DNA from: Escherichia phage TheodorHerzl
Sequence record: MZ501107
Strand: one strand, 5' to 3'
DNA length: 43,627 bases
Shown: one piece after another, positions 5,541 through 39,802 of the stretch
Numbering within the stretch: position 1 is the first letter of the stretch
How the letters are laid out: every line of letters starts with the position of its first letter
Notes under the pieces: generated by a model
Told to the model about the DNA's origin: nothing
The model's input: only the letters and a program-made list of their open reading frames with translations
The model's database searches: none
Translations under genes and position numbers: made by a program

Positions 5541-5580
5541 GTGCAACCAATATAGTGCAACCAATACGCGGATTGCAAGC
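5541..5580 (-). promoter_or_regulatory. sigma70-like promoter for the clamp-fragment gene, containing two ATTGGTTGCA motif copies
   Basis: Minus-strand reading gives TTGCAA, an 18-nt spacer that includes ATTGGTTGCAC, then TATATT, with a second TTGGTTGCAC just downstream. Coordinates approximate. Confidence 0.5.
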
Positions 5581-21574: not shown

Positions 21575-21654
21575 GTTATCATCTCCTTTATTTGGTTGAG
21601 TTTTAGTATTACACCGCTCGATCAAGAATGCAACCAATTTAAGAGGATTTAGCT

Positions 21655-23379
21655 ATGGCAGCGGGTACGCTCTCCGTAACGAACAATAGCAAGGCGGTAG
21701 TAGGGGTCGGCACAACGTTCACCGCGTTCAAGGCTGGCGACTTCTTATCGCTGGTGGTAGGGCAAGTGCCTTACACCGTAGCGATCGCATCAATCGAAAG
21801 TAACACGGCGCTTACGCTGGTGCTGCCGTTCGACGGCCCAACGGCAACCGGCCTTGCGTGGGACGGCGTTAAACGCGATACCCTGTCACTGGCAACGATG
21901 GGCGTTACCGTCCAGGCCCAGAAAGCATTGCGCTTGATGATTGCCGACGAAAACAACTGGCGTGCAATCTTCGGCGAAGAAGAAGAAATCTCGGTCACGC
22001 TACCTAACGGTCAAGTGGTGCAGGGTATGTCGTGGGGCTATTTGTCCTCCTTGCTGAAGGAAGTAGACCCCGTTGAGATGCGCAACCTTCAACAACAGGC
22101 CGAGAACGCTCGCAACCAGGCGCAAGGCTACCGTGATGAGGCGGAAGGTTTTAAAAACCAGATTAACCCTGCACTATTCGTGCAGAAGTCCCAAAACCTG
22201 AATGACGTTGCCGATAAAGCTGAGGCGCGCGCTAACTTGCAAGTTTTATTTGCGTCAAACTCTAACCTGGGGTCTACCGACCTCAACACGCTCAACAGCA
22301 CGAAGGAAGGGCGTTATTACCAGACCACATCGGTGAACGCTACACCAGAGCGTAACTACCCGTTTCAGGAAGCCGGTTGTCTTACCGTGTTTAAAACCGG
22401 CGGGGGTAGTGTGGAGGCTTGCATCCAGGAGTACACCACGTTTTCAAGCCTGCGTCGGTTCGTCCGTGCGCTCGCTGGGGCGGTGTGGACGGAGTGGAAG
22501 GAGATCTACCTGCAAGGGTCGTCCCCAACATACGAAAATATCGACTCGACAGGACGAGTTAGATCTGAAAAGGCATATCCGGCGTTCGAGTGGGTGTCGA
22601 CGAGAGTAGACGACGATTTCATCGGTAAGCGAGTCAGCATTGAGAACGACACAGGCGTTAATATGTATATGTTCTTCATGCAGAAAGACACAACCGCAAA
22701 CAGACGTGTCGTAGCGTTCGCAAGGCCAAACTCTACTGTTTTCCACTTCGTAGGATATAACGGCGGGCTACCCACAGACGGCAACAGCGCCCCGTCGGAT
22801 AACATTAACTTTAACACGCAACCGCAAGGATGGCGTATGGTGTCCGGCGGCTGGCAAAATGCACCGCTCGCCGGGAACAACTACGGGACTTTATTCACGC
22901 AGTGTGTGCAAGGTGTGTCGCAGGGGGATTCTAAAAACAGCGGCACTTCTGGCCTATGGTACTCACAGCGATATTTTAATACAGAATCGCGGGCGTTTAT
23001 CCGAAATCAAACAAACAACGCAGACTGGGGCGGGTGGTATGAATTTACTAAAACGGCAGTCTCGGATGAACGCCTGAAGAATGTAAAAGGTAATTTGAAT
23101 GTTGAAGGTGCGCTCGATAACATCAACCGCATGGAATTTAAAATATTCTCGTTTAAGGATGAGAAGGCCGGTAAGGGGTATCGTCGCGGTGTTATCTCGC
23201 AGCAGATTCGCCAGATCGATAAAGAGTACACGAAGGAGATCGGCGGGTACTATCACCTCGACCAGACACCAATGCTACTGGACGCCCTAGCGGCAATTAA
23301 GGCGTTGCGTGCGCGTGACGAGGCTAATAAAGCAGAGATTGCAGAACTGAAGGCGGCTATTGCCGAATTGAAGCAATAA
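21655..23379 (+). CDS. tail fibre protein with C-terminal intramolecular chaperone (S74-like) domain
   Basis: 574 aa with RBS AAGAGGA. The C-terminal ~105 aa begin at the SDERLKN motif and end in a coiled coil, typical of self-cleaving fibre chaperone domains. N-terminus is homologous to the 14202 gene product. Confidence 0.8.
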   Translation: MAAGTLSVTNNSKAVVGVGTTFTAFKAGDFLSLVVGQVPYTVAIASIESNTALTLVLPFDGPTATGLAWDGVKRDTLSLATMGVTVQAQKALRLMIADENNWRAIFGEEEEISVTLPNGQVVQGMSWGYLSSLLKEVDPVEMRNLQQQAENARNQAQGYRDEAEGFKNQINPALFVQKSQNLNDVADKAEARANLQVLFASNSNLGSTDLNTLNSTKEGRYYQTTSVNATPERNYPFQEAGCLTVFKTGGGSVEACIQEYTTFSSLRRFVRALAGAVWTEWKEIYLQGSSPTYENIDSTGRVRSEKAYPAFEWVSTRVDDDFIGKRVSIENDTGVNMYMFFMQKDTTANRRVVAFARPNSTVFHFVGYNGGLPTDGNSAPSDNINFNTQPQGWRMVSGGWQNAPLAGNNYGTLFTQCVQGVSQGDSKNSGTSGLWYSQRYFNTESRAFIRNQTNNADWGGWYEFTKTAVSDERLKNVKGNLNVEGALDNINRMEFKIFSFKDEKAGKGYRRGVISQQIRQIDKEYTKEIGGYYHLDQTPMLLDALAAIKALRARDEANKAEIAELKAAIAELKQ

Positions 23380-23383
23380 ATAG

Positions 23384-23409
23384 AAGGGGCCGTATGGCCC
23401 CTTTTTTAG
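23384..23409. terminator. terminator between the convergent tail fibre gene and the minus-strand early operon
   Basis: AAGGGGCC-GTAT-GGCCCC followed by six T. Confidence 0.75.
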
Positions 23410-23981
23410 TTTAAGTTTTCCCAGTCCATTTTGCGCCGCACTAGCGGGCTTTCGTAATACTCCTTCCCATCCACTTCCACTAAGGGCCAGTCATTAACAA
23501 TGACGTAAGGCTCTGCGATATCCTCGATCACGCCGTGCGCGCTATGTTGTCCGAAATCTACGCCCACCAGGATAACACCGGCAACGCGACGCGTGAGATA
23601 CTCGCGAGCGCAACGGGCCTCGACCAGTCCTCGACGTATGCCGCTGGTGGCCTTAACCTCGTAGGTCCAGACGGCATCGATCACATGTTCGCGGAAGTCG
23701 GGACCGGATTTTACCTTGCGCTTGCCGACCATGATAATATCGCCGCGGTCGATAGTGTTAGCGCTAAACAGGCCGGTACGCATTAGTAAGCCTTGCGGGA
23801 TACAGCTACGCCCACCCGTCTGCCCTTCGAGGTACATGCCTGCAAACATTTCGCCCAGCACACCGACGAGTCTGCTTTGCTTGCACGCGTCGGACTTATA
23901 CCGCCACTGGTCAAACTCGATGCTTGCGATCATTGCCGCCAGGTGGAATTGTTTACCTGATATTTCATATTCGCCGTACAT
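23406..23981 (-). CDS. hypothetical protein, possible PD-(D/E)XK-fold nuclease
   Basis: 191 aa with RBS GGGGGA. The stretch GPDF...DAVWTYEVKAT has PD...ExK-like spacing. Weak assignment. Confidence 0.45.
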   Translation of the reverse strand: MYGEYEISGKQFHLAAMIASIEFDQWRYKSDACKQSRLVGVLGEMFAGMYLEGQTGGRSCIPQGLLMRTGLFSANTIDRGDIIMVGKRKVKSGPDFREHVIDAVWTYEVKATSGIRRGLVEARCAREYLTRRVAGVILVGVDFGQHSAHGVIEDIAEPYVIVNDWPLVEVDGKEYYESPLVRRKMDWENLN

Positions 23982-24023
23982 TGTGAATCCCCCATTGCCG
24001 CGGGCCGAAGCCCGCGATTAGAA

Positions 24024-24545
24024 TTATTTCAGTGCGCCAGTCACCAGTGTTTTTTCCATGTTGCGGAAGTCTTCCGGCGTCATGAGGATTTTGGACCCAT
24101 CCTCGCCAGTGAGCACGACAATAGGCTGGACGTCCTGGGCTACGACGCCGAAATCGGCGGCTTTGACAGTCTTGCCCGCAGATGCCGAAGGACGCCACGT
24201 TCCGCCGGAGGCGATGGGCCAACCTTTGAGGCTGTCGAATTGTGCTGCCGTTGTATCGATCTGAATCTCGTCATGCACGGTCATGTAAGACTCACCCAGC
24301 AGGGCGGCATACGCCACCAGATCCACGATGTTATCTTCCTGGTGCTTTCGGTGCTGACGTACCAGCTTCAGGCAGATCAGGAAGGTCCAGGCTTCTTGCT
24401 CGGACAGGTCGCGACCGGTAAGCGCGTTAAACACGGCGGCGATTTGTTTAGCGCTGCGTTCTTCTTTCGCGTTGTCATAGCCGTTTTCTTTCCCTCGCTG
24501 CTCCATAGTGGTGGCGGCGTTTTTGCAGTATTCGTATGCTTTCAC
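24024..24545 (-). CDS. hypothetical protein
   Basis: 173 aa with GTG start, preceded by a TTGCAA-N18-TATAGT promoter. Confidence 0.55.
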   Translation of the reverse strand: MKAYEYCKNAATTMEQRGKENGYDNAKEERSAKQIAAVFNALTGRDLSEQEAWTFLICLKLVRQHRKHQEDNIVDLVAYAALLGESYMTVHDEIQIDTTAAQFDSLKGWPIASGGTWRPSASAGKTVKAADFGVVAQDVQPIVVLTGEDGSKILMTPEDFRNMEKTLVTGALK

Positions 24546-24592
24546 AGTATTACCCTTTTTAGTGAGGGGGCTGTATTGCCCCCGACGAGTTA

Positions 24593-24622
24593 ACTATAAT
24601 GCAACCAACCTATTGGTTGCAA
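24593..24622 (-). promoter_or_regulatory. sigma70-like promoter containing a palindromic ATTGGTTGCA pair
   Basis: Minus strand reads TTGCAA, then the 18-nt spacer CCAATAGGTTGGTTGCAT, then TATAGT. The 8-4-8 palindrome GCAACCAA-nnnn-TTGGTTGC overlaps the 3-prime end of the HAD gene. Coordinates approximate. Confidence 0.55.
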
Positions 24623-25080
24623 GTGAATTTTGCAACGTTTATTGCGTAAATTTTCGGAACCAAATCACCACACGCCCGACGAATTGCCGCGATGTTCTTC
24701 TCGCAATCTTCAATGATGACCAGTTCCGACACGTCTGCGTAGCAGACCATTTTGAACACGGCGCACGCCTTAAACTCTGGCGGCGGTGTGTCGTCCAGCA
24801 TGTGGCGCATAAACAACCGGCCCACCGGGAAGACCTTCAATTGCTCGGCGGTGGTGTCCCAACATTCTCGCTGCCGGTTTGTCAGATACGCTATCTCGAA
24901 GCCTTGCTCTTTGTACATGCGCAGCAGCGGCAGCATATCCATGTTCAGATCTTCGCGGACGTGCGCTTTGTGCCACTTTGCCCAAAAGGTGGATTTCGTT
25001 TTTATCCCTGGCACCAGGTCGGCACGCGCATCGCTTGAACCGTTAATAACGCCATCCAGGTCACAAATCAGTAATTTCAT
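24610..25080 (-). CDS. HAD-superfamily phosphatase (possible 5-prime-deoxynucleotidase)
   Basis: 156 aa. The N-terminal MKLLICDLDGVI matches HAD motif I (DxDG). Confidence 0.65.
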   Translation of the reverse strand: MKLLICDLDGVINGSSDARADLVPGIKTKSTFWAKWHKAHVREDLNMDMLPLLRMYKEQGFEIAYLTNRQRECWDTTAEQLKVFPVGRLFMRHMLDDTPPPEFKACAVFKMVCYADVSELVIIEDCEKNIAAIRRACGDLVPKIYAINVAKFTCNQ

Positions 25081-25310
25081 TTTAAACTCTCAATAAGGGT
25101 CTGTCGGGCGCTTCGCGCAGTAAAGGAGTTGCACACGAAATGGCAACGCTGAGTCATGACAAGCCAACCGGTGAGGTCAAGGCCCATGATGCGTCCGGGA
25201 TGAGACGCGCGCACCACATGATTGCGCCGCGGGTCAATGCCGTAGTCTTTTTGCATTTGGTCTACGACCGCAGGGTCGCGGTCAACGATTAAGATATTCA
25301 TGTAGCTCAC
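25077..25310 (-). CDS. hypothetical protein
   Basis: 77 aa ORF with ATGA overlap to the downstream gene; co-oriented within the operon. Confidence 0.4.
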   Translation of the reverse strand: MSYMNILIVDRDPAVVDQMQKDYGIDPRRNHVVRASHPGRIMGLDLTGWLVMTQRCHFVCNSFTARSARQTLIESLK

Positions 25311-25767
25311 TCTCGCTCATTATTTCAATTTGTGCGCTGCCGGTGGGCGGCGCTTCGTCAAAGATTATCAATTGCTGGCACTTGTTATTGCTCGGCCCGA
25401 CTTCGCCGGTTACAGCATGTATAAATCGGATCCGCCAGTCCAGAAGAATTATCAGGTTTGCAGTCTTCCGGGCCATCTTTGCCCACTTCGTCGACGTGTC
25501 CTGATTCAGTAGCATGACAGTCCGGCGACCGTGCGCTGCGCATTCCACCCACGGCAGCGGATCGGAATACGGCGGATTGCACCACTTCCACCCTTTCAAC
25601 TCTGCCCAGTCCACATCAAGCGCGCTGTGCTCTGCCGTGAAGTAACGCGGTAGCAGATGATTGGCGTCGCTTGCCGCCATATCGTAACGGAATCGATACT
25701 TCCGACGAAGCGGTTTAAATAAAGCTGGCGGCGTGCGCCAGCTATCTTTTTGCTCATTCTTCTGCAT
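25282..25767 (-). CDS. DNA N6-adenine methyltransferase (phage Dam-type)
   Basis: 161 aa. WRTPPALFKPL...YDMAASDANHLLPRYFTAE...WKWCNPPYSD carries the NPPY catalytic motif and a phage-Dam-like N-terminus. Confidence 0.8.
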   Translation of the reverse strand: MQKNEQKDSWRTPPALFKPLRRKYRFRYDMAASDANHLLPRYFTAEHSALDVDWAELKGWKWCNPPYSDPLPWVECAAHGRRTVMLLNQDTSTKWAKMARKTANLIILLDWRIRFIHAVTGEVGPSNNKCQQLIIFDEAPPTGSAQIEIMSESELHEYLNR

Positions 25768-26218
25768 GACCTGGATCTATCGCGTATAAAGGGACTTTAT
25801 TGCCGGTTTTCATAACGCGCTGGACGCGCTTTGACTCCTCGGCGCTCATTGGGCGCATATCAGTGCTATAACCTCCGTTTGATGTATGCCGCCACGCTAT
25901 CAGCACCAGATCTTTCCTGTCGATCTTAGACTGGCTGCACTTCGGTCGCACGTACGCCTCGGCCCGTTTGCAATGCTCGCGCAGACCTTCGGCCGTGATG
26001 CGGTTTAGCGCGACGGTGGTTGTGTACCCGGTGCGCTGCATAATACCCATCAACTCATACAGCAGTTCGAAGCGTTCCTCTAATTCCTTGCGCGCCTTCT
26101 CCTCGCCTTCATAGCTTGCCAGGTAGGTGTCCGCCAACGCGTTCGCACGTTCGGCCTGTTCGCGGGCTTCGAGGCATTGCGCGGCCCAGTAATTTTTCTC
26201 TTCTTGTAAAATTTTCAT
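25754..26218 (-). CDS. hypothetical protein (coiled-coil N-terminus)
   Basis: 154 aa, contiguous with its neighbours in the operon. Confidence 0.5.
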   Translation of the reverse strand: MKILQEEKNYWAAQCLEAREQAERANALADTYLASYEGEEKARKELEERFELLYELMGIMQRTGYTTTVALNRITAEGLREHCKRAEAYVRPKCSQSKIDRKDLVLIAWRHTSNGGYSTDMRPMSAEESKRVQRVMKTGNKVPLYAIDPGHAEE

Positions 26219-26461
26219 TTATTTAATCTCCGTAGTGCGGATTTCCTTGCGAGGAATAAATTTGCCGTCTTTCTCGACCCAGCAAGTTCCGTAACGCCAT
26301 TGGGTATTACGGCCTGTTTGCTCGGCATATACGGTCTTGCATTCGTAGCGTTCCGTGTAGTAAATAGCCGCGGTAGGTACGAAAATACAAACGGCAAACA
26401 TGAGGGTGAGTATCACCCAAAATCGAAGGTCGCCGTCGTAGTCGAAAAATAATGATCTCAT
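26219..26461 (-). CDS. small membrane protein
   Basis: 80 aa with RBS GGAGA and one predicted transmembrane helix WVILTLMFAVCIFVPTAAIYY. Confidence 0.5.
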   Translation of the reverse strand: MRSLFFDYDGDLRFWVILTLMFAVCIFVPTAAIYYTERYECKTVYAEQTGRNTQWRYGTCWVEKDGKFIPRKEIRTTEIK

Positions 26462-26508
26462 TGTGTCGTCTCCGGGTATTAAAAAGGGCGTCCAAACCGG
26501 ACACCCTC

Positions 26509-26542
26509 AATATAATGCAACCAATATGATTATGCAACCAAT
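26509..26542 (-). promoter_or_regulatory. sigma70-like promoter TTGCAT-N17-TATATT built from two direct ATTGGTTGCAT copies
   Basis: Minus strand reads ATTGGTTGCAT AATCAT ATTGGTTGCAT TATATT. Coordinates approximate. Confidence 0.55.
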
Positions 26543-26866
26543 TTACGCATAAAAGTTCGGGTCGCGTGCAACGTCTACCAGGTAAAGGTTGCTTATGCGG
26601 TTGCCGTAGTGCCCTGGGGTGCGCTGGCGGCACACAACGGCGAAGCCTGGAGGGATTGTATTGCCCGTCGCAATAATCCACGCCACGCGTGCGCCAGACA
26701 GCGTCTTGCCGTTGCATTCGATACGGGTTCCGCCGTCGGCAGTGTTAAGGTTGCCAATCTTGCAGCCGGTGGACTTCAGACGGATGACCCCGGTTTTGCT
26801 GTCGTAGGTGAATAGCTGGTTAGTCATTGCGACCGAAAAGTCGATTGCTTCGAATGAAGTATTCAT
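26543..26866 (-). CDS. HNH-type endonuclease-like protein (putative)
   Basis: 107 aa. The pattern NGKTLSGARVAWIIATGNTIP...NLYLV resembles HNH_3-type homing-endonuclease domains. Assignment from memory. Confidence 0.45.
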   Translation of the reverse strand: MNTSFEAIDFSVAMTNQLFTYDSKTGVIRLKSTGCKIGNLNTADGGTRIECNGKTLSGARVAWIIATGNTIPPGFAVVCRQRTPGHYGNRISNLYLVDVARDPNFYA

Positions 26867-27441
26867 TTTAAATTTTCCTCGTTAACCGCTATCGCGAAGC
26901 CGTTGCCGGTCCATAAGCAGGTCAGCTTCGGATATGAATCGCGGGCGTTGATGTATTCCGGGAAGAGCGGGTGTACGTCATCCTCCGGCAGATATCCCCC
27001 ATACTCCCACGGGTCGAACGAGTGATCCGGCTTGCGCCACTGGGAGGAAAGCACACTGCGCGGATTCTCAATCATATATGGCACTTCGAAGAAGTCACCC
27101 AGGTAAGCGGCGATCTTCGCGGTGCGCACCGCCTTAAGCTGAAAGGCCGGGTCTTTAGCCCGCTTGCGCGGGAAAGCTGGCGCACCGCTCACTGCCAGAT
27201 CCGTACACGGAGGGAATGCATAGATGATATCCGGCGTACCGAAATCGCCGTTCATCGCGCGGTCCACAAAGTCCATATCGATAAACACATTGCGATACCG
27301 GATTCCGCGACCATAAATACGGTAGTCAAGGTAAGACCCGTGATCGGCTTCGGAGTAGTTGAAGCAATAACACTTATGCCCCATCTCGGCAGCACGCTCA
27401 ATCATCAAGCCGCTGCCGTCAAACAATGACCAGATTATCAT
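26863..27441 (-). CDS. short DNA (cytosine-5)-methyltransferase-like protein
   Basis: 192 aa. SLFDGSG (motif I-like), FPPCTDLAVSG (PC motif IV-like) and YMIENPRS (ENV motif VI-like). Too short to hold a canonical target-recognition domain. Confidence 0.45.
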   Translation of the reverse strand: MIIWSLFDGSGLMIERAAEMGHKCYCFNYSEADHGSYLDYRIYGRGIRYRNVFIDMDFVDRAMNGDFGTPDIIYAFPPCTDLAVSGAPAFPRKRAKDPAFQLKAVRTAKIAAYLGDFFEVPYMIENPRSVLSSQWRKPDHSFDPWEYGGYLPEDDVHPLFPEYINARDSYPKLTCLWTGNGFAIAVNEENLK

Positions 27442-28862
27442 TTGCGCGCCTTTTTAGCTTTCATGTATTCCATCAAGTCGTCCTGTATATCTCGCTTACT
27501 GTCGCGACGCTCGGCGACCAATTCGTCCAGTGTCCCGCGCGCCTGGATAATGTAGACGAATACCGGTCGAGGGTGTCCGGCCTGCATCTGGCGAACCGGC
27601 CCGATACGCTCAACGATCTGCGAAAAGTGCTCAAAGTTCCAGGTATCGGAGAAGATTGCCAGGTGATGCCCGCCGTCCTGCAAGTTAAGGCCGTGGCCCG
27701 CCGATGCCGGGTGTGCAAACATGATGGGGATCTCGCCCCTGTTCCACGCTTCCATATCCTTATTGCCCTGCTTACCCTTACCCAACGCGACGCCGTGCGG
27801 AAATTTCTTCTTAAGACGTGCCAGGTCATGCTTATACTGATACGCAACGAGCAACGGCGCGCCGTTCAACTCCTCCACGATACTTTCCAGCGCGTCCAGC
27901 TTCGCGTCGTGAATCTTCACCCACTCGTCGGTCCGTTCGCCGTCTTCGTCCACCTTATACACAGCGCCGGAAGCAAGCTGAAGGCACTTAATTGTCTTCG
28001 CCGCGGCATTCGCCGCTTCCACTGTCCCGCTTTCCAGTTCGGCAAATAGCTCGCTTTCAAACTGGTCGTAAATCTTGCGGGCTTTCTTCGGCAGGTCCAC
28101 AACAACAGGCGTATAGATTGGCTTGTCGCACCCGAAGTATTCAGCCGCGTCAACGGTGAGGGATACATCTGACAGACGTTGTTGTATCTCTTTCTCGGAG
28201 TTCTTTAGCGGAGCGTGCTGCATAGTGAAGCTGCCAGGCTTAACAGGCTTGCTAATGAACCAGCGGTCGGTAAATGCCTTATAACTACTGCCGAGGCGTT
28301 CGCCACCGTCGACAAACCACGTCTGACCCCATAAGTCTTTCAGCCCGTTTGGCGCTGGTGTGCCGGTAAGGTTAATCCAGCGCTTGACGTGCTTATGTGC
28401 AATCGCTGCCAGTGCGCGGGCGCGCTTGCTCCCCTGCTTGCTACGATAGCCTTTCAGCTTAGTCGATTCATCGGCAACAACGACCGTAAAGGGCCACGCA
28501 TCGCCGTAATAGTCGACCAGCCACTCAACCACATCGTAGTTAACACAAACCACGTTAGCGTCGCTCTCAAGCGCTGCAATACGGTCCTTCTCCGGCCCGG
28601 TGCCGTCTACGACCAGCAGGGATGAGAACCGCCATTTCTCCTGTTCCGGGGGCCATGTACCCGACGCAACACGCAGCGGGGCCAGCACCAGTACGCGGTC
28701 CTCATGATGGGACAGGACGCCAGTCTGGAACATTTTATTCAGCGCCCACATTGTCGCGCCGGTTTTACCCGACCCCATTGTCGCCCAGATATTGCATCGC
28801 TTATGCTTGAGGATGAACGCGGTAATCAACTTCTGATATTCGCGGCGTCGGAATCGTGCCAT
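27438..28862 (-). CDS. SNF2/DEAD-like DNA helicase
   Basis: 474 aa from the internal ATG at 28862, which abuts the upstream gene. Walker A ATMGSGKTG, DExx box VVADESTKL, and a C-terminal helicase domain. Confidence 0.85.
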   Translation of the reverse strand: MARFRRREYQKLITAFILKHKRCNIWATMGSGKTGATMWALNKMFQTGVLSHHEDRVLVLAPLRVASGTWPPEQEKWRFSSLLVVDGTGPEKDRIAALESDANVVCVNYDVVEWLVDYYGDAWPFTVVVADESTKLKGYRSKQGSKRARALAAIAHKHVKRWINLTGTPAPNGLKDLWGQTWFVDGGERLGSSYKAFTDRWFISKPVKPGSFTMQHAPLKNSEKEIQQRLSDVSLTVDAAEYFGCDKPIYTPVVVDLPKKARKIYDQFESELFAELESGTVEAANAAAKTIKCLQLASGAVYKVDEDGERTDEWVKIHDAKLDALESIVEELNGAPLLVAYQYKHDLARLKKKFPHGVALGKGKQGNKDMEAWNRGEIPIMFAHPASAGHGLNLQDGGHHLAIFSDTWNFEHFSQIVERIGPVRQMQAGHPRPVFVYIIQARGTLDELVAERRDSKRDIQDDLMEYMKAKKARK

Positions 28863-28866
28863 CTCT

Positions 28867-29100
28867 TTATTCCGCCTTTTTCCAGACTTCAGTTTCACTA
28901 TCCCAGTTCCTCTTTGTGGCGTCGTAGTTGGTGGCGTGTCCGACGTGGATACCGGTCGCACGGAAGCTCTTAAACTTCTGCCAACACACCGTCAACGGCA
29001 GCGGGGTATTCATGCCTGCGATAAACCATACGCGATCTCCTTGTTTACATTCGCCCAGCTTGGTGAGTCGGTAATGTTCTTTCATCGTCATGTCTCCCAA
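28867..29100 (-). CDS. hypothetical protein
   Basis: 77 aa ORF ending 5 nt before the helicase start. Confidence 0.45.
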   Translation of the reverse strand: MGDMTMKEHYRLTKLGECKQGDRVWFIAGMNTPLPLTVCWQKFKSFRATGIHVGHATNYDATKRNWDSETEVWKKAE

Positions 29101-29128
29101 AAATGGCGGGACAAGCCCGCCGTATTAA

Positions 29129-29292
29129 TTATTTTTGTTCTGCACGGTAACGGCGCTGCCGTTCGCGCTCTTTCTTATTGCGGCACGATTTGCACTCTGC
29201 CCGATACCCGTCCGGGCTTCGCGCAGTCTTACCGGTGTATTTGTGGAACTGTGATAGCGGTTTAACGCAGCCGCAATTACTACAACGTTTTT
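29129..29292 (-). CDS. small zinc-ribbon protein (putative)
   Basis: 54 aa from the ATG with RBS GAGG. Contains CSNCGC...CKSC (four Cys) and a basic C-terminus. Start is uncertain; the ORF could extend to 29374. Confidence 0.4.
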
Positions 29293-29323
29293 CTTCAATC
29301 ATCTCTAAAATCCTCGATATGGC

Positions 29324-29363
29324 TAACCGGCACACTATACCGCTATGCGACCAATTCAGCAAC
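29324..29363 (-). promoter_or_regulatory. sigma70-like promoter TTGCTG-N17-TATAGT with ATTGGTTGC and ATTGGTCGCAT motif copies
   Basis: Minus strand reads ATTGGTTGCTG AATTGGTCGCATAGCGG TATAGT. Coordinates approximate. Confidence 0.45.
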
Positions 29364-29621
29364 CAATAAATCACAGTCGGCGATGTTGTCTATAACGCGA
29401 ACGTCAGCGCCGCGGCGGGCCATCCGCTCATGTTCACGTACCTGGTGCGGCTTCGGTTTTCCTCCGGGGCGCTTCACTTCGACGAACACTATTTTGCCGT
29501 TGATGATGATAATCAGATCGGGCGCACCTGCGCGCCCCTCCCATGCCAGTTTGCGGCAGAATCCGCCCACCTCTTTCACCCGTCGCATCAGGTGACTTTG
29601 AATCTTGCCTTCTGGAGTCAT
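29343..29621 (-). CDS. VRR-NUC domain nuclease
   Basis: 92 aa from the ATG with RBS AGGAAG, overlapping the polymerase stop (TAATG). GAPDLIIIINGKIVFVEVKRPGGKPKPHQVREHERMARRGADVRV is a PD-(D/E)XK VRR-NUC signature. Confidence 0.75.
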   Translation of the reverse strand: MTPEGKIQSHLMRRVKEVGGFCRKLAWEGRAGAPDLIIIINGKIVFVEVKRPGGKPKPHQVREHERMARRGADVRVIDNIADCDLLVAELVA

Positions 29622-35536: not shown

Positions 35537-35772
35537 GGTATATCTCCGATTGGTTAAGTTTAGGTGTCGGCAGTTAACTTCGTCGGTGGCCTTAACATAT
35601 TGCCAGGTTACGCGTTCTCCCGTTCGGGTAGTGGACCTGGTTATATAATCACGGTTGGGAATCCTGACACTTCGATCCGGCCCCTGCGTTGCCCCTCTCC
35701 AGTTTGCGTCCTGTATCCTGTCGACGGAGTGAATAATAGATTGGTTGCAGGATGGGTGTCAACAACTAATTT

Positions 35773-38958: not shown

Positions 38959-38993
38959 TATTGGTTGCATTCACCCCGGCACCTTGTTATATT
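38959..38993 (+). promoter_or_regulatory. sigma70-like promoter TTGCAT-N17-TATATT with flanking ATTGGTTGCA copies
   Basis: ATTGGTTGCAT at 38959-38969; TATATT at 38988-38993, followed immediately by TGGTTGCAC. Lies about 30 nt upstream of the 39021 gene. Confidence 0.55.
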
Positions 38994-39020
38994 GGTTGCA
39001 CACCAACGGGAGGGCGGAAC

Positions 39021-39532: not shown

Positions 39533-39802
39533 ATGGGCCGTAGACGAGCAAAACAGCTTTCGTGGCATATTCCCCTGCATTGCATACGAATATGGGCTGA
39601 GAATGCGAATGCTGGGGATTCTGTATTCTGGTGTTATCGCGATGACGTTAAGCCGTTGACGCAGACTCGCTACCTGCACCAGTTCGCAGCACAACACGAT
39701 TTCAGGGTGCGGACTTCCTTGCAACCAATGGGGATCCGTATTACATTACGCCGGAAGCCCGCCGTTGAGCGGGTAGGCAAACACTGGAGACTGAGCAAAT
39801 GA
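39533..39802 (+). CDS. hypothetical protein (basic)
   Basis: 89 aa with RBS AAGGGG. Confidence 0.5.
   Translation: MGRRRAKQLSWHIPLHCIRIWAENANAGDSVFWCYRDDVKPLTQTRYLHQFAAQHDFRVRTSLQPMGIRITLRRKPAVERVGKHWRLSK

Follow-up and report, generated by a model that had tools for sequence, protein, structure and literature searches.

Organisation of the locus

The accessory gene cluster considered here lies at positions 24024-27441 of the window, by which we mean the whole 43,627-nucleotide stretch of Escherichia phage TheodorHerzl (sequence record MZ501107) that was analysed. TheodorHerzl (BASEL Bas14) belongs to the genus Dhillonvirus and has the window as its complete genome; the 4-kb region is 90-93% DNA-identical to 156 records found by a DNA search of a phage collection, nearly all of them Escherichia phages of that genus. 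The cluster encodes a Dam methyltransferase and a dcm-like cytosine methyltransferase gene that has lost 117 bp, and we note at the outset that this decayed allele, together with the recurrent decay of the same gene elsewhere in Dhillonvirus, is the only, and modest, new point of the study. The genes are as follows (lengths in amino acids, aa).

27438-28961, minus strand: SNF2-family helicase, a context gene whose stop overlaps the start of the dcm-like gene by 4 nt
26863-27441, minus strand: dcm-like gene, 192 aa, phrog_757, internally deleted allele
26896-26902, minus strand: deletion junction, where one copy of the 7-bp direct repeat CGGCTTC is left
26543-26866, minus strand: HNH-like protein, 107 aa, PHROG 99 match, degenerate
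26219-26461, minus strand: 80-aa protein, phrog_18961, one hydrophobic segment
25754-26218, minus strand: 154-aa protein, phrog_10530
25282-25767, minus strand: Dam, 161 aa, PF05869, NPPY at aa 64-67
25077-25310, minus strand: small protein, 74-77 aa, phrog_10685
24610-25080, minus strand: HAD phosphatase, 156 aa, stand-alone, all four catalytic motifs present
24024-24545, minus strand: DUF6378 protein, 173 aa

Every minus-strand open reading frame (ORF) named in the initial annotation of this DNA is present. The order annotated in sister genomes is helicase, Dcm-like methyltransferase, putative homing/HNH endonuclease, two hypothetical proteins, Dam-like methyltransferase, a hypothetical protein, a putative phosphatase and two further hypothetical proteins; this is an ordinary accessory cluster, all parts of which are of known kinds and annotated already. 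The helicase, dcm-like and HNH-like genes are linked by 4-nt ATGA overlaps, an 81-bp gap follows the HNH-like gene, and the genes for the 80-aa protein, the 154-aa protein, Dam, the 77-aa ORF and the HAD protein then abut or overlap. Downstream, 64 bp separate the HAD gene from the DUF6378 gene and 42 bp the latter from a 191-aa ORF, after which comes a terminator-like hairpin. The cluster would form the accessory, promoter-distal end of the Dhillonvirus replication/early operon.

The dcm-like gene and its 117-bp deletion

Relatives of the dcm-like protein are 231-236 aa long, and the window copy, at 192 aa, is short of 117 bp (39 codons) in frame. In the relatives the 117 bp lie exactly between two copies of CGGCTTC, and a slippage-type deletion between these repeats would have removed the 39 residues. 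The missing residues, FRMPEK...LGGKSARTKLIRSLTPRG (FRMPEK...IRSLTPRG), with the near-invariant LGGKSxxTKxIRSLTPRGF, form the best conserved block of the family's C-terminal half: the lost L208-R224 are at least 90% conserved among close relatives (alignment A3), and R219, S220, P223 and G225 are still at least 90% conserved across 72 divergent representatives, each standing for a cluster at 50% identity. In the structure model the core's last strand (179-184) precedes the deleted stretch and the C-terminal helix (224-234) follows it. Canonical C5 cytosine methyltransferases have their target-recognition region and motif IX at that position, and RSLTPR resembles what we take to be the motif IX consensus; IRSLTPR, the R-x-L-T-P-R-like sequence sought here, and the loop that precedes it are both deleted from the window protein. 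The segment is kept in 153 phage records and in all 60 best matches, and since the TheodorHerzl copy has lost the most conserved motif of the family it is probably inactive. The S-adenosylmethionine (AdoMet)-binding and catalytic core, with PC and ENP, is kept, yet the protein would most likely be unable to methylate DNA. Elsewhere in the gene, synonymous changes relative to two relatives outnumber amino-acid changes (15:4 and 37:7 codons), which suggests that purifying selection acted on the gene until recently and that the deletion is a recent one.

The protein is identical to QXV85043.1/YP_010740963.1, deposited as [quoted passage not shown]. Motifs I, IV and VI of C5-methyltransferases had been read in it; FDGSG (motif I, aa 7-11) and PPC79 (motif IV) are there, motif VI is E125-N-P rather than ENV, and 192 aa is not the native length. 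The Cys of the motif IV Pro-Cys and the Glu of motif VI are invariant in the 72 divergent representatives. The assignment as such holds by fold and by a published homologue, not by recognition of the sequence in Pfam, NCBIfam or the PDB. The 192-aa protein has no Pfam, NCBIfam or PADLOC match; neither it nor a full-length relative (P0001) matches PF00145 at E<=0.1, and only 5/72 relatives do so at E<=1; two family profiles run against all PDB sequences found nothing significant, the best relevant hit being M.HaeIII at E=1.3; and hhalign gave no meaningful alignment between the family profile and the 330-aa C5-methyltransferase of the Edwardsiella phage eiAU-183. Membership at the level of sequence found no support in the Pfam, NCBIfam, PADLOC and PDB profile searches, and the sole link is the fold comparison, in which the protein has an AdoMet-methyltransferase fold of C5-methyltransferase topology, predicted to be DNMT3A-like. 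The family differs from the canonical enzymes (M.HhaI, M.HaeIII and the DNMT3A/3B catalytic domain), to which sequence profiles do not connect it, in being some 100 residues shorter, in having only a vestigial target-recognition region and in lacking a recognisable motif X.

The phrog_757 profile matches the N-terminal 181 aa (E=2.7e-64, profile positions 15-168 of 247); full-length members have about 230 aa and a C-terminal LGGKSxxTKxIRSxTPRGFA, which is absent in the window. The family is large, with 2,384 clusters at 90% identity, nearly all of 226-250 aa, 1,896 representatives at 50% identity and 1,509 phage records from Escherichia, Klebsiella, Salmonella and others.

The published homologue is the trigger of retron Ec86, the 711-bp dcm of phage K42, a relative of KarlJaspers/Bas06 (bioRxiv 10.1101/2023.08.16.553469; the same study appeared later as Cell Rep 2024;43:114857, as cited in PMC12746101). 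Expression of K42 Dcm raised 5-methylcytosine (5mC) on the multicopy single-stranded DNA (msDNA), as measured by liquid chromatography coupled with mass spectrometry (LC-MS), a C82A/E128A/K175A/K176A mutant was inactive, the enzyme model was superposed on DNMT3A, and 4/4 Ec86 escaper phages carried a lesion within dcm or immediately upstream of it (10.1101/2023.08.16.553469). Over its full length KarlJaspers bas06_0055 (711 bp) shares 54% identity with P0001 (E=8e-86), and the KarlJaspers Dcm is 56% identical to the window protein (E=2e-72); K42 C82, E128 and K175 align with window C79, E125 and K172. The K42/KarlJaspers enzyme thus shares with the Dhillonvirus proteins phrog_757, the 236-aa length class of the full-length forms, the DNMT3A-like predicted fold and these three residues, whereas K176 is Leu in Dhillonvirus, the host phage belongs to Drexlerviridae rather than Dhillonvirus, the gene neighbourhood is another one, and the 39 residues that precede the C-terminal helix are missing from the window copy. 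The published activity of K42 Dcm, taken with the identity of 54-56%, indicates that the dcm-like family is a real, experimentally supported minimal C5-methyltransferase, and one already known. Adenine methylases of phage or prophage are also reported as retron triggers (PMC12548924), and a preprint by Bobonis et al. likewise describes them in this role. In TheodorHerzl, Bas14_0045, a DUF2800 PD-(D/E)XK nuclease, is reported to trigger the type IX retron Sen3, with escapers mutating Bas14_0045 (2026 preprint).

The window allele does not stand alone, for four further independent dcm-like lesions are found in Dhillonvirus genomes. Teewinot retains a 61-aa in-frame remnant without the whole catalytic core (L008 1486-1671), in AV129 the gene is split into two ORFs (L007 164-859), and the metagenomic genomes P0005 and P0047 carry other in-frame internal deletions. 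With the window allele included, in-frame lesions number 4/5, where chance would give one third (binomial p ~0.045), and we speculate that the 4-nt overlap with the HNH-like gene may favour lesions that keep translational coupling. Taken together with the retron work, the decay alleles form a pattern that fits a dispensable and sometimes harmful gene; the dcm-like gene would be repeatedly lost in the genus, plausibly as host defences sense C5 methylation.

Neighbouring genes and control sites

The claim of a phage-type Dam with an NPPY motif was borne out. The product matches PF05869 over its full length (E=5.6e-36; 124.2 bits against a gathering cut-off of 28.1) and has NPPY at aa 64-67, as expected of the phage Dam family PF05869/TIGR01712, while scoring 87.5 bits against TIGR01712, just under the NCBIfam equivalog cut-off of 97.05. 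Judged by its sequence, Dam is apparently intact and working-looking, and would methylate adenines in phage DNA after replication.

The "HNH nuclease" of the initial annotation can be upheld in part. The HNH-like protein, whose start shares 4 nt (ATGA) with the dcm-like stop, matches PHROG 99 (E=8.8e-16) and nothing else: there is no Pfam HNH, HNH_3 or HNH_5 match at E<=0.1, and a single-sequence PDB search gave nothing significant. Its N-terminal beta-rich region and ...GNRxSNL... align with the HNH_3/AP2-type phage homing endonucleases (phrog_99). Asp-His is the usual pair in the HNH_3-type consensus; at these canonical positions the HNH-like alignment has Cys-Arg/Gln (Cys-Arg in the window), followed by a conserved GHY and then NRxSNL, and the protein ends three residues past the last Asn, with no helix after it. 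The combination of a beta-beta-alpha-Me motif bearing a catalytic His with a match to an HNH model was not found. Homologues are confined to Dhillonvirus, apart from a 41% identical protein in eiAU-183, and unlike the sporadic homing endonucleases the gene is in essentially all Dhillonvirus records (80-99% identity), always adjoining dcm. The HNH-like gene product thus appears to be a degenerate, genus-fixed protein and not a demonstrable nuclease; fixed and degenerate as it is, it is not a typical mobile homing endonuclease. It would be translationally coupled to dcm. A role as specificity partner of the mini-Dcm was considered and rejected: K42 Dcm works alone from a plasmid (10.1101/2023.08.16.553469), and the family comprises about 1,500 phage records, among which those listed from outside Dhillonvirus, KarlJaspers included, have no adjoining HNH annotation.

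The HAD-family phosphatase was correctly called. Among 12 homologues D7, D9, K104 and D125 never vary and S/T67 is conserved (T67 in the window), motifs I-IV of the superfamily are all present, and structure comparison confirmed the fold. The nearest fold is the 3'-phosphatase domain of T4 Pnkp and Pnkp1, with class B/C acid phosphatases scoring equally well; there is no match to Pfam HAD_PNKP, and a single-sequence PDB search, here as with the DUF6378 protein, found nothing significant. The protein neither matches PF06941 nor has a 5'(3')-deoxyribonucleotidase (NT5C) as its closest fold. Since its nearest fold is of the Pnkp type and not that of a deoxynucleotidase, the earlier proposal of a deoxynucleotide phosphatase that remodels the nucleotide pool lacks support, and a polynucleotide or 3'-nucleotide phosphatase role is, on the structural model, better supported. 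Unlike T4 polynucleotide kinase-phosphatase and the Pnkp1 of bacterial RNA repair, the protein has no kinase domain attached, nor does the cluster supply a supported ligase; it would be a stand-alone Pnkp-like 3'-phosphatase encoded by an independent accessory gene.

Five further genes would encode small proteins. The DUF6378, 154-aa, 80-aa and 74-77-aa proteins gave no informative matches, and the literature on DUF6378 yielded nothing functional. The labels "DNA ligase" for the 154-aa ORF (phrog_10530, RefSeq SSL-2009a gp35) and "phosphofructokinase" for the DUF6378 protein (phrog_474/1167) were rejected, having no Pfam, NCBIfam or PDB support, and look like propagated mis-annotations. The 80-aa protein has one hydrophobic, probably membrane-spanning segment, FWVILTLMFAVCIFVPTAAIYY, as read from the sequence. 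The phrog_10685 match to the 77-aa ORF begins at residue 4, so its start is probably the ATG at 25301, giving 74 aa.

At the other end of the locus, the longest ORF of the SNF2 helicase begins with a GTG at 28961 and gives 507 aa. The annotation in relatives is shorter, at 474 aa (1,425 nt), and the true start is therefore probably further downstream. The ORF of 191 aa (23406-23981, minus strand) contains GDIIM...(27 aa)...YEVK, which by eye is reminiscent of a PD-(D/E)xK nuclease motif.

The features just outside the cluster and the sites that may control it are as follows.

23406-23981, minus strand: last gene of the leftward operon, 191 aa, phrog_10558, no domain match
23382-23405, no strand: bidirectional terminator-like hairpin, flanked by the converging tail-fibre gene and leftward operon
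26481-26541, minus strand: intergenic control region upstream of the 80-aa gene, with positions conserved in Oekolampad and SSL-2009a
24593-24622, minus strand: palindrome TGCAACCAA-N4-TTGGTTGCA upstream of the DUF6378 gene
5542-5564, 21629-21637, 24600-24621, 26516-26541, 35741-35749, 38961-39000 and 39720-39728: copies of the 9-mer TTGGTTGCA

The 9-mer TTGGTTGCA occurs in 11 copies in the window, against 0.47 expected, often paired as direct or palindromic copies. Both intergenic gaps within the cluster contain copies, as does the spacer of the strongest of the leftward promoter-like sites (35762-35733). Oekolampad and SSL-2009a have the 9-mer at conserved positions, and it probably serves a phage regulator as an operator or promoter element. 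In the control region at 26481-26541 two direct copies of TTGGTTGCA(T) overlap a sigma-70-like promoter (TTGCAT-17-TATATT), which is followed by a 10-bp GC-rich hairpin and a T run. The palindrome at 24593-24622 consists of two inverted copies overlapping another sigma-70-like promoter (TTGCAA-18-TATAGT). A search of 22500-29500 against Rfam found no RNA family. The best leftward promoter-like sites lie at 35762-35733 and 35865-35837, and the description of the cluster as the promoter-distal part of a leftward operon ending at the terminator at 23382-23405 is therefore broadly right, with the addition that the cluster also holds these two internal promoter-like/operator sites.

A decayed methylase in an accessory cluster

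The cluster had been taken for a DNA-modification or anti-restriction module, in which two methyltransferases evade host restriction and the phosphatase possibly remodels the nucleotide pool. The gene calls behind this proposal were largely right: the locus, at the level of the genus, encodes two methyltransferase types, Dam and a mini Dcm-like enzyme, and no hypermodification pathway is present, as had been said. That such a module is active in TheodorHerzl we consider quite unlikely. The intact Dam, the PC and ENP kept by the dcm-like ORF, and the co-orientation and tight packing of the genes speak for it, as does the related phage eiAU-183 (Eiauvirus; L006 852-4382), where a helicase, an HNH-like homologue, a 330-aa PF00145 C5-methyltransferase and then Dam occupy the same neighbourhood. 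From this shared order the neighbourhood appears to be old, with the locus conserved and the type of cytosine methylase exchanged in Eiauvirus. In TheodorHerzl, however, one of the two methylases, being without the 39 most conserved residues, is probably dead. Dhillonvirus phages are reported to be comparatively sensitive to type I/II restriction-modification, notably more so than the 7-deazaguanine-modified Queuovirinae, and in related Drexlerviridae methyltransferase genes show no simple link to restriction resistance (PMC8594841). The published family enzyme is a liability, which triggers retron Ec86 and is lost in escapers. Nor do the genes travel as one module, for the Dcm-like genes listed from outside Dhillonvirus lack the adjoining HNH annotation, and KarlJaspers has neither an HNH-like gene nor Dam beside its Dcm, its Pnkp-like phosphatase being about 5 kb away. 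Site avoidance in the genome was uninformative, since neither GATC (164 observed, 168-203 expected) nor CCWGG (138 observed, 109-148 expected) is depleted. Nothing supports a coordinated modification or nucleotide-pool module, and the genes of the cluster other than the methylases would be independent accessory genes.

Alternatively, the 192-aa protein might still function, for instance with relaxed or changed target specificity or in another AdoMet-dependent role, the deletion being a variant. The deletion, being in frame, spares the C-terminal helix as well as FDGSG and the catalytic residues, and the exact protein is found on 6 contigs; we nevertheless think this unlikely, because no part of the C-terminal half is better conserved across the 72 divergent representatives than the lost residues, because other alleles in the genus remove the whole catalytic core, so that loss of function is tolerated, and because a need for translational coupling to the downstream gene would also explain the in-frame outcome. 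It is very improbable that the deletion is an artefact of assembly or cloning and that the phage really has a full-length gene. Only one genome of the phage collection carries it, and short direct repeats can mislead assemblers, but a loss of 117 bp between 7-bp repeats is atypical of short-read collapse, the exact 192-aa sequence occurs both in NCBI and in independent Logan assemblies (the same 6 contigs), and the gene has other natural deletions.

We therefore favour, with a probability of roughly 70%, an accessory cluster with an apparently intact Dam, a decayed and dispensable dcm-like gene and otherwise independent genes. Of this, the gene content, homology and fold, the deletion with its rarity and the other decay alleles are observed, whereas loss of activity, the cause of selection and what Dam and the phosphatase act on are inferred. 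Several points weigh against this reading. Both catalytic residues (Cys and Glu) and the loop of motif I are unharmed and the frame is preserved, so that residual or altered activity is conceivable, and AlphaFold2 (AF2) is no guide to whether the deleted protein is stable. The link to pressure from retrons or type IV restriction is circumstantial: the K-12 strain on which the BASEL phages were isolated has no restriction systems, K-12 lacks Ec86, and a literature search found no data on the sensitivity of Bas14 to retron Ec86. Furthermore, the CCWGG specificity of the family is assumed, and not mapped, in the published work (10.1101/2023.08.16.553469).

A bolder version of the decayed-gene reading, which we put forward tentatively and regard as rather doubtful, is that the dcm-like gene is a recurrently discarded liability, its independent lesions having been selected by methylation-sensing defences (retron Ec86-type or type IV restriction), the in-frame excess arising from coupling to the HNH-like gene, and TheodorHerzl being a natural retron-escape variant. 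If the decay were adaptive, it would be a natural case of a phage dropping an anti-restriction function because host immunity senses the modification. Two practical consequences follow for users of this phage. The GenBank/RefSeq name "Dcm-like C5 cytosine methyltransferase" should be read with caution, given that the allele probably cannot methylate DNA. In defence screens with retrons, type IV restriction or BREX-like systems, Bas14 may be expected to differ in behaviour from Bas15-18 on grounds that have nothing to do with the system being studied.

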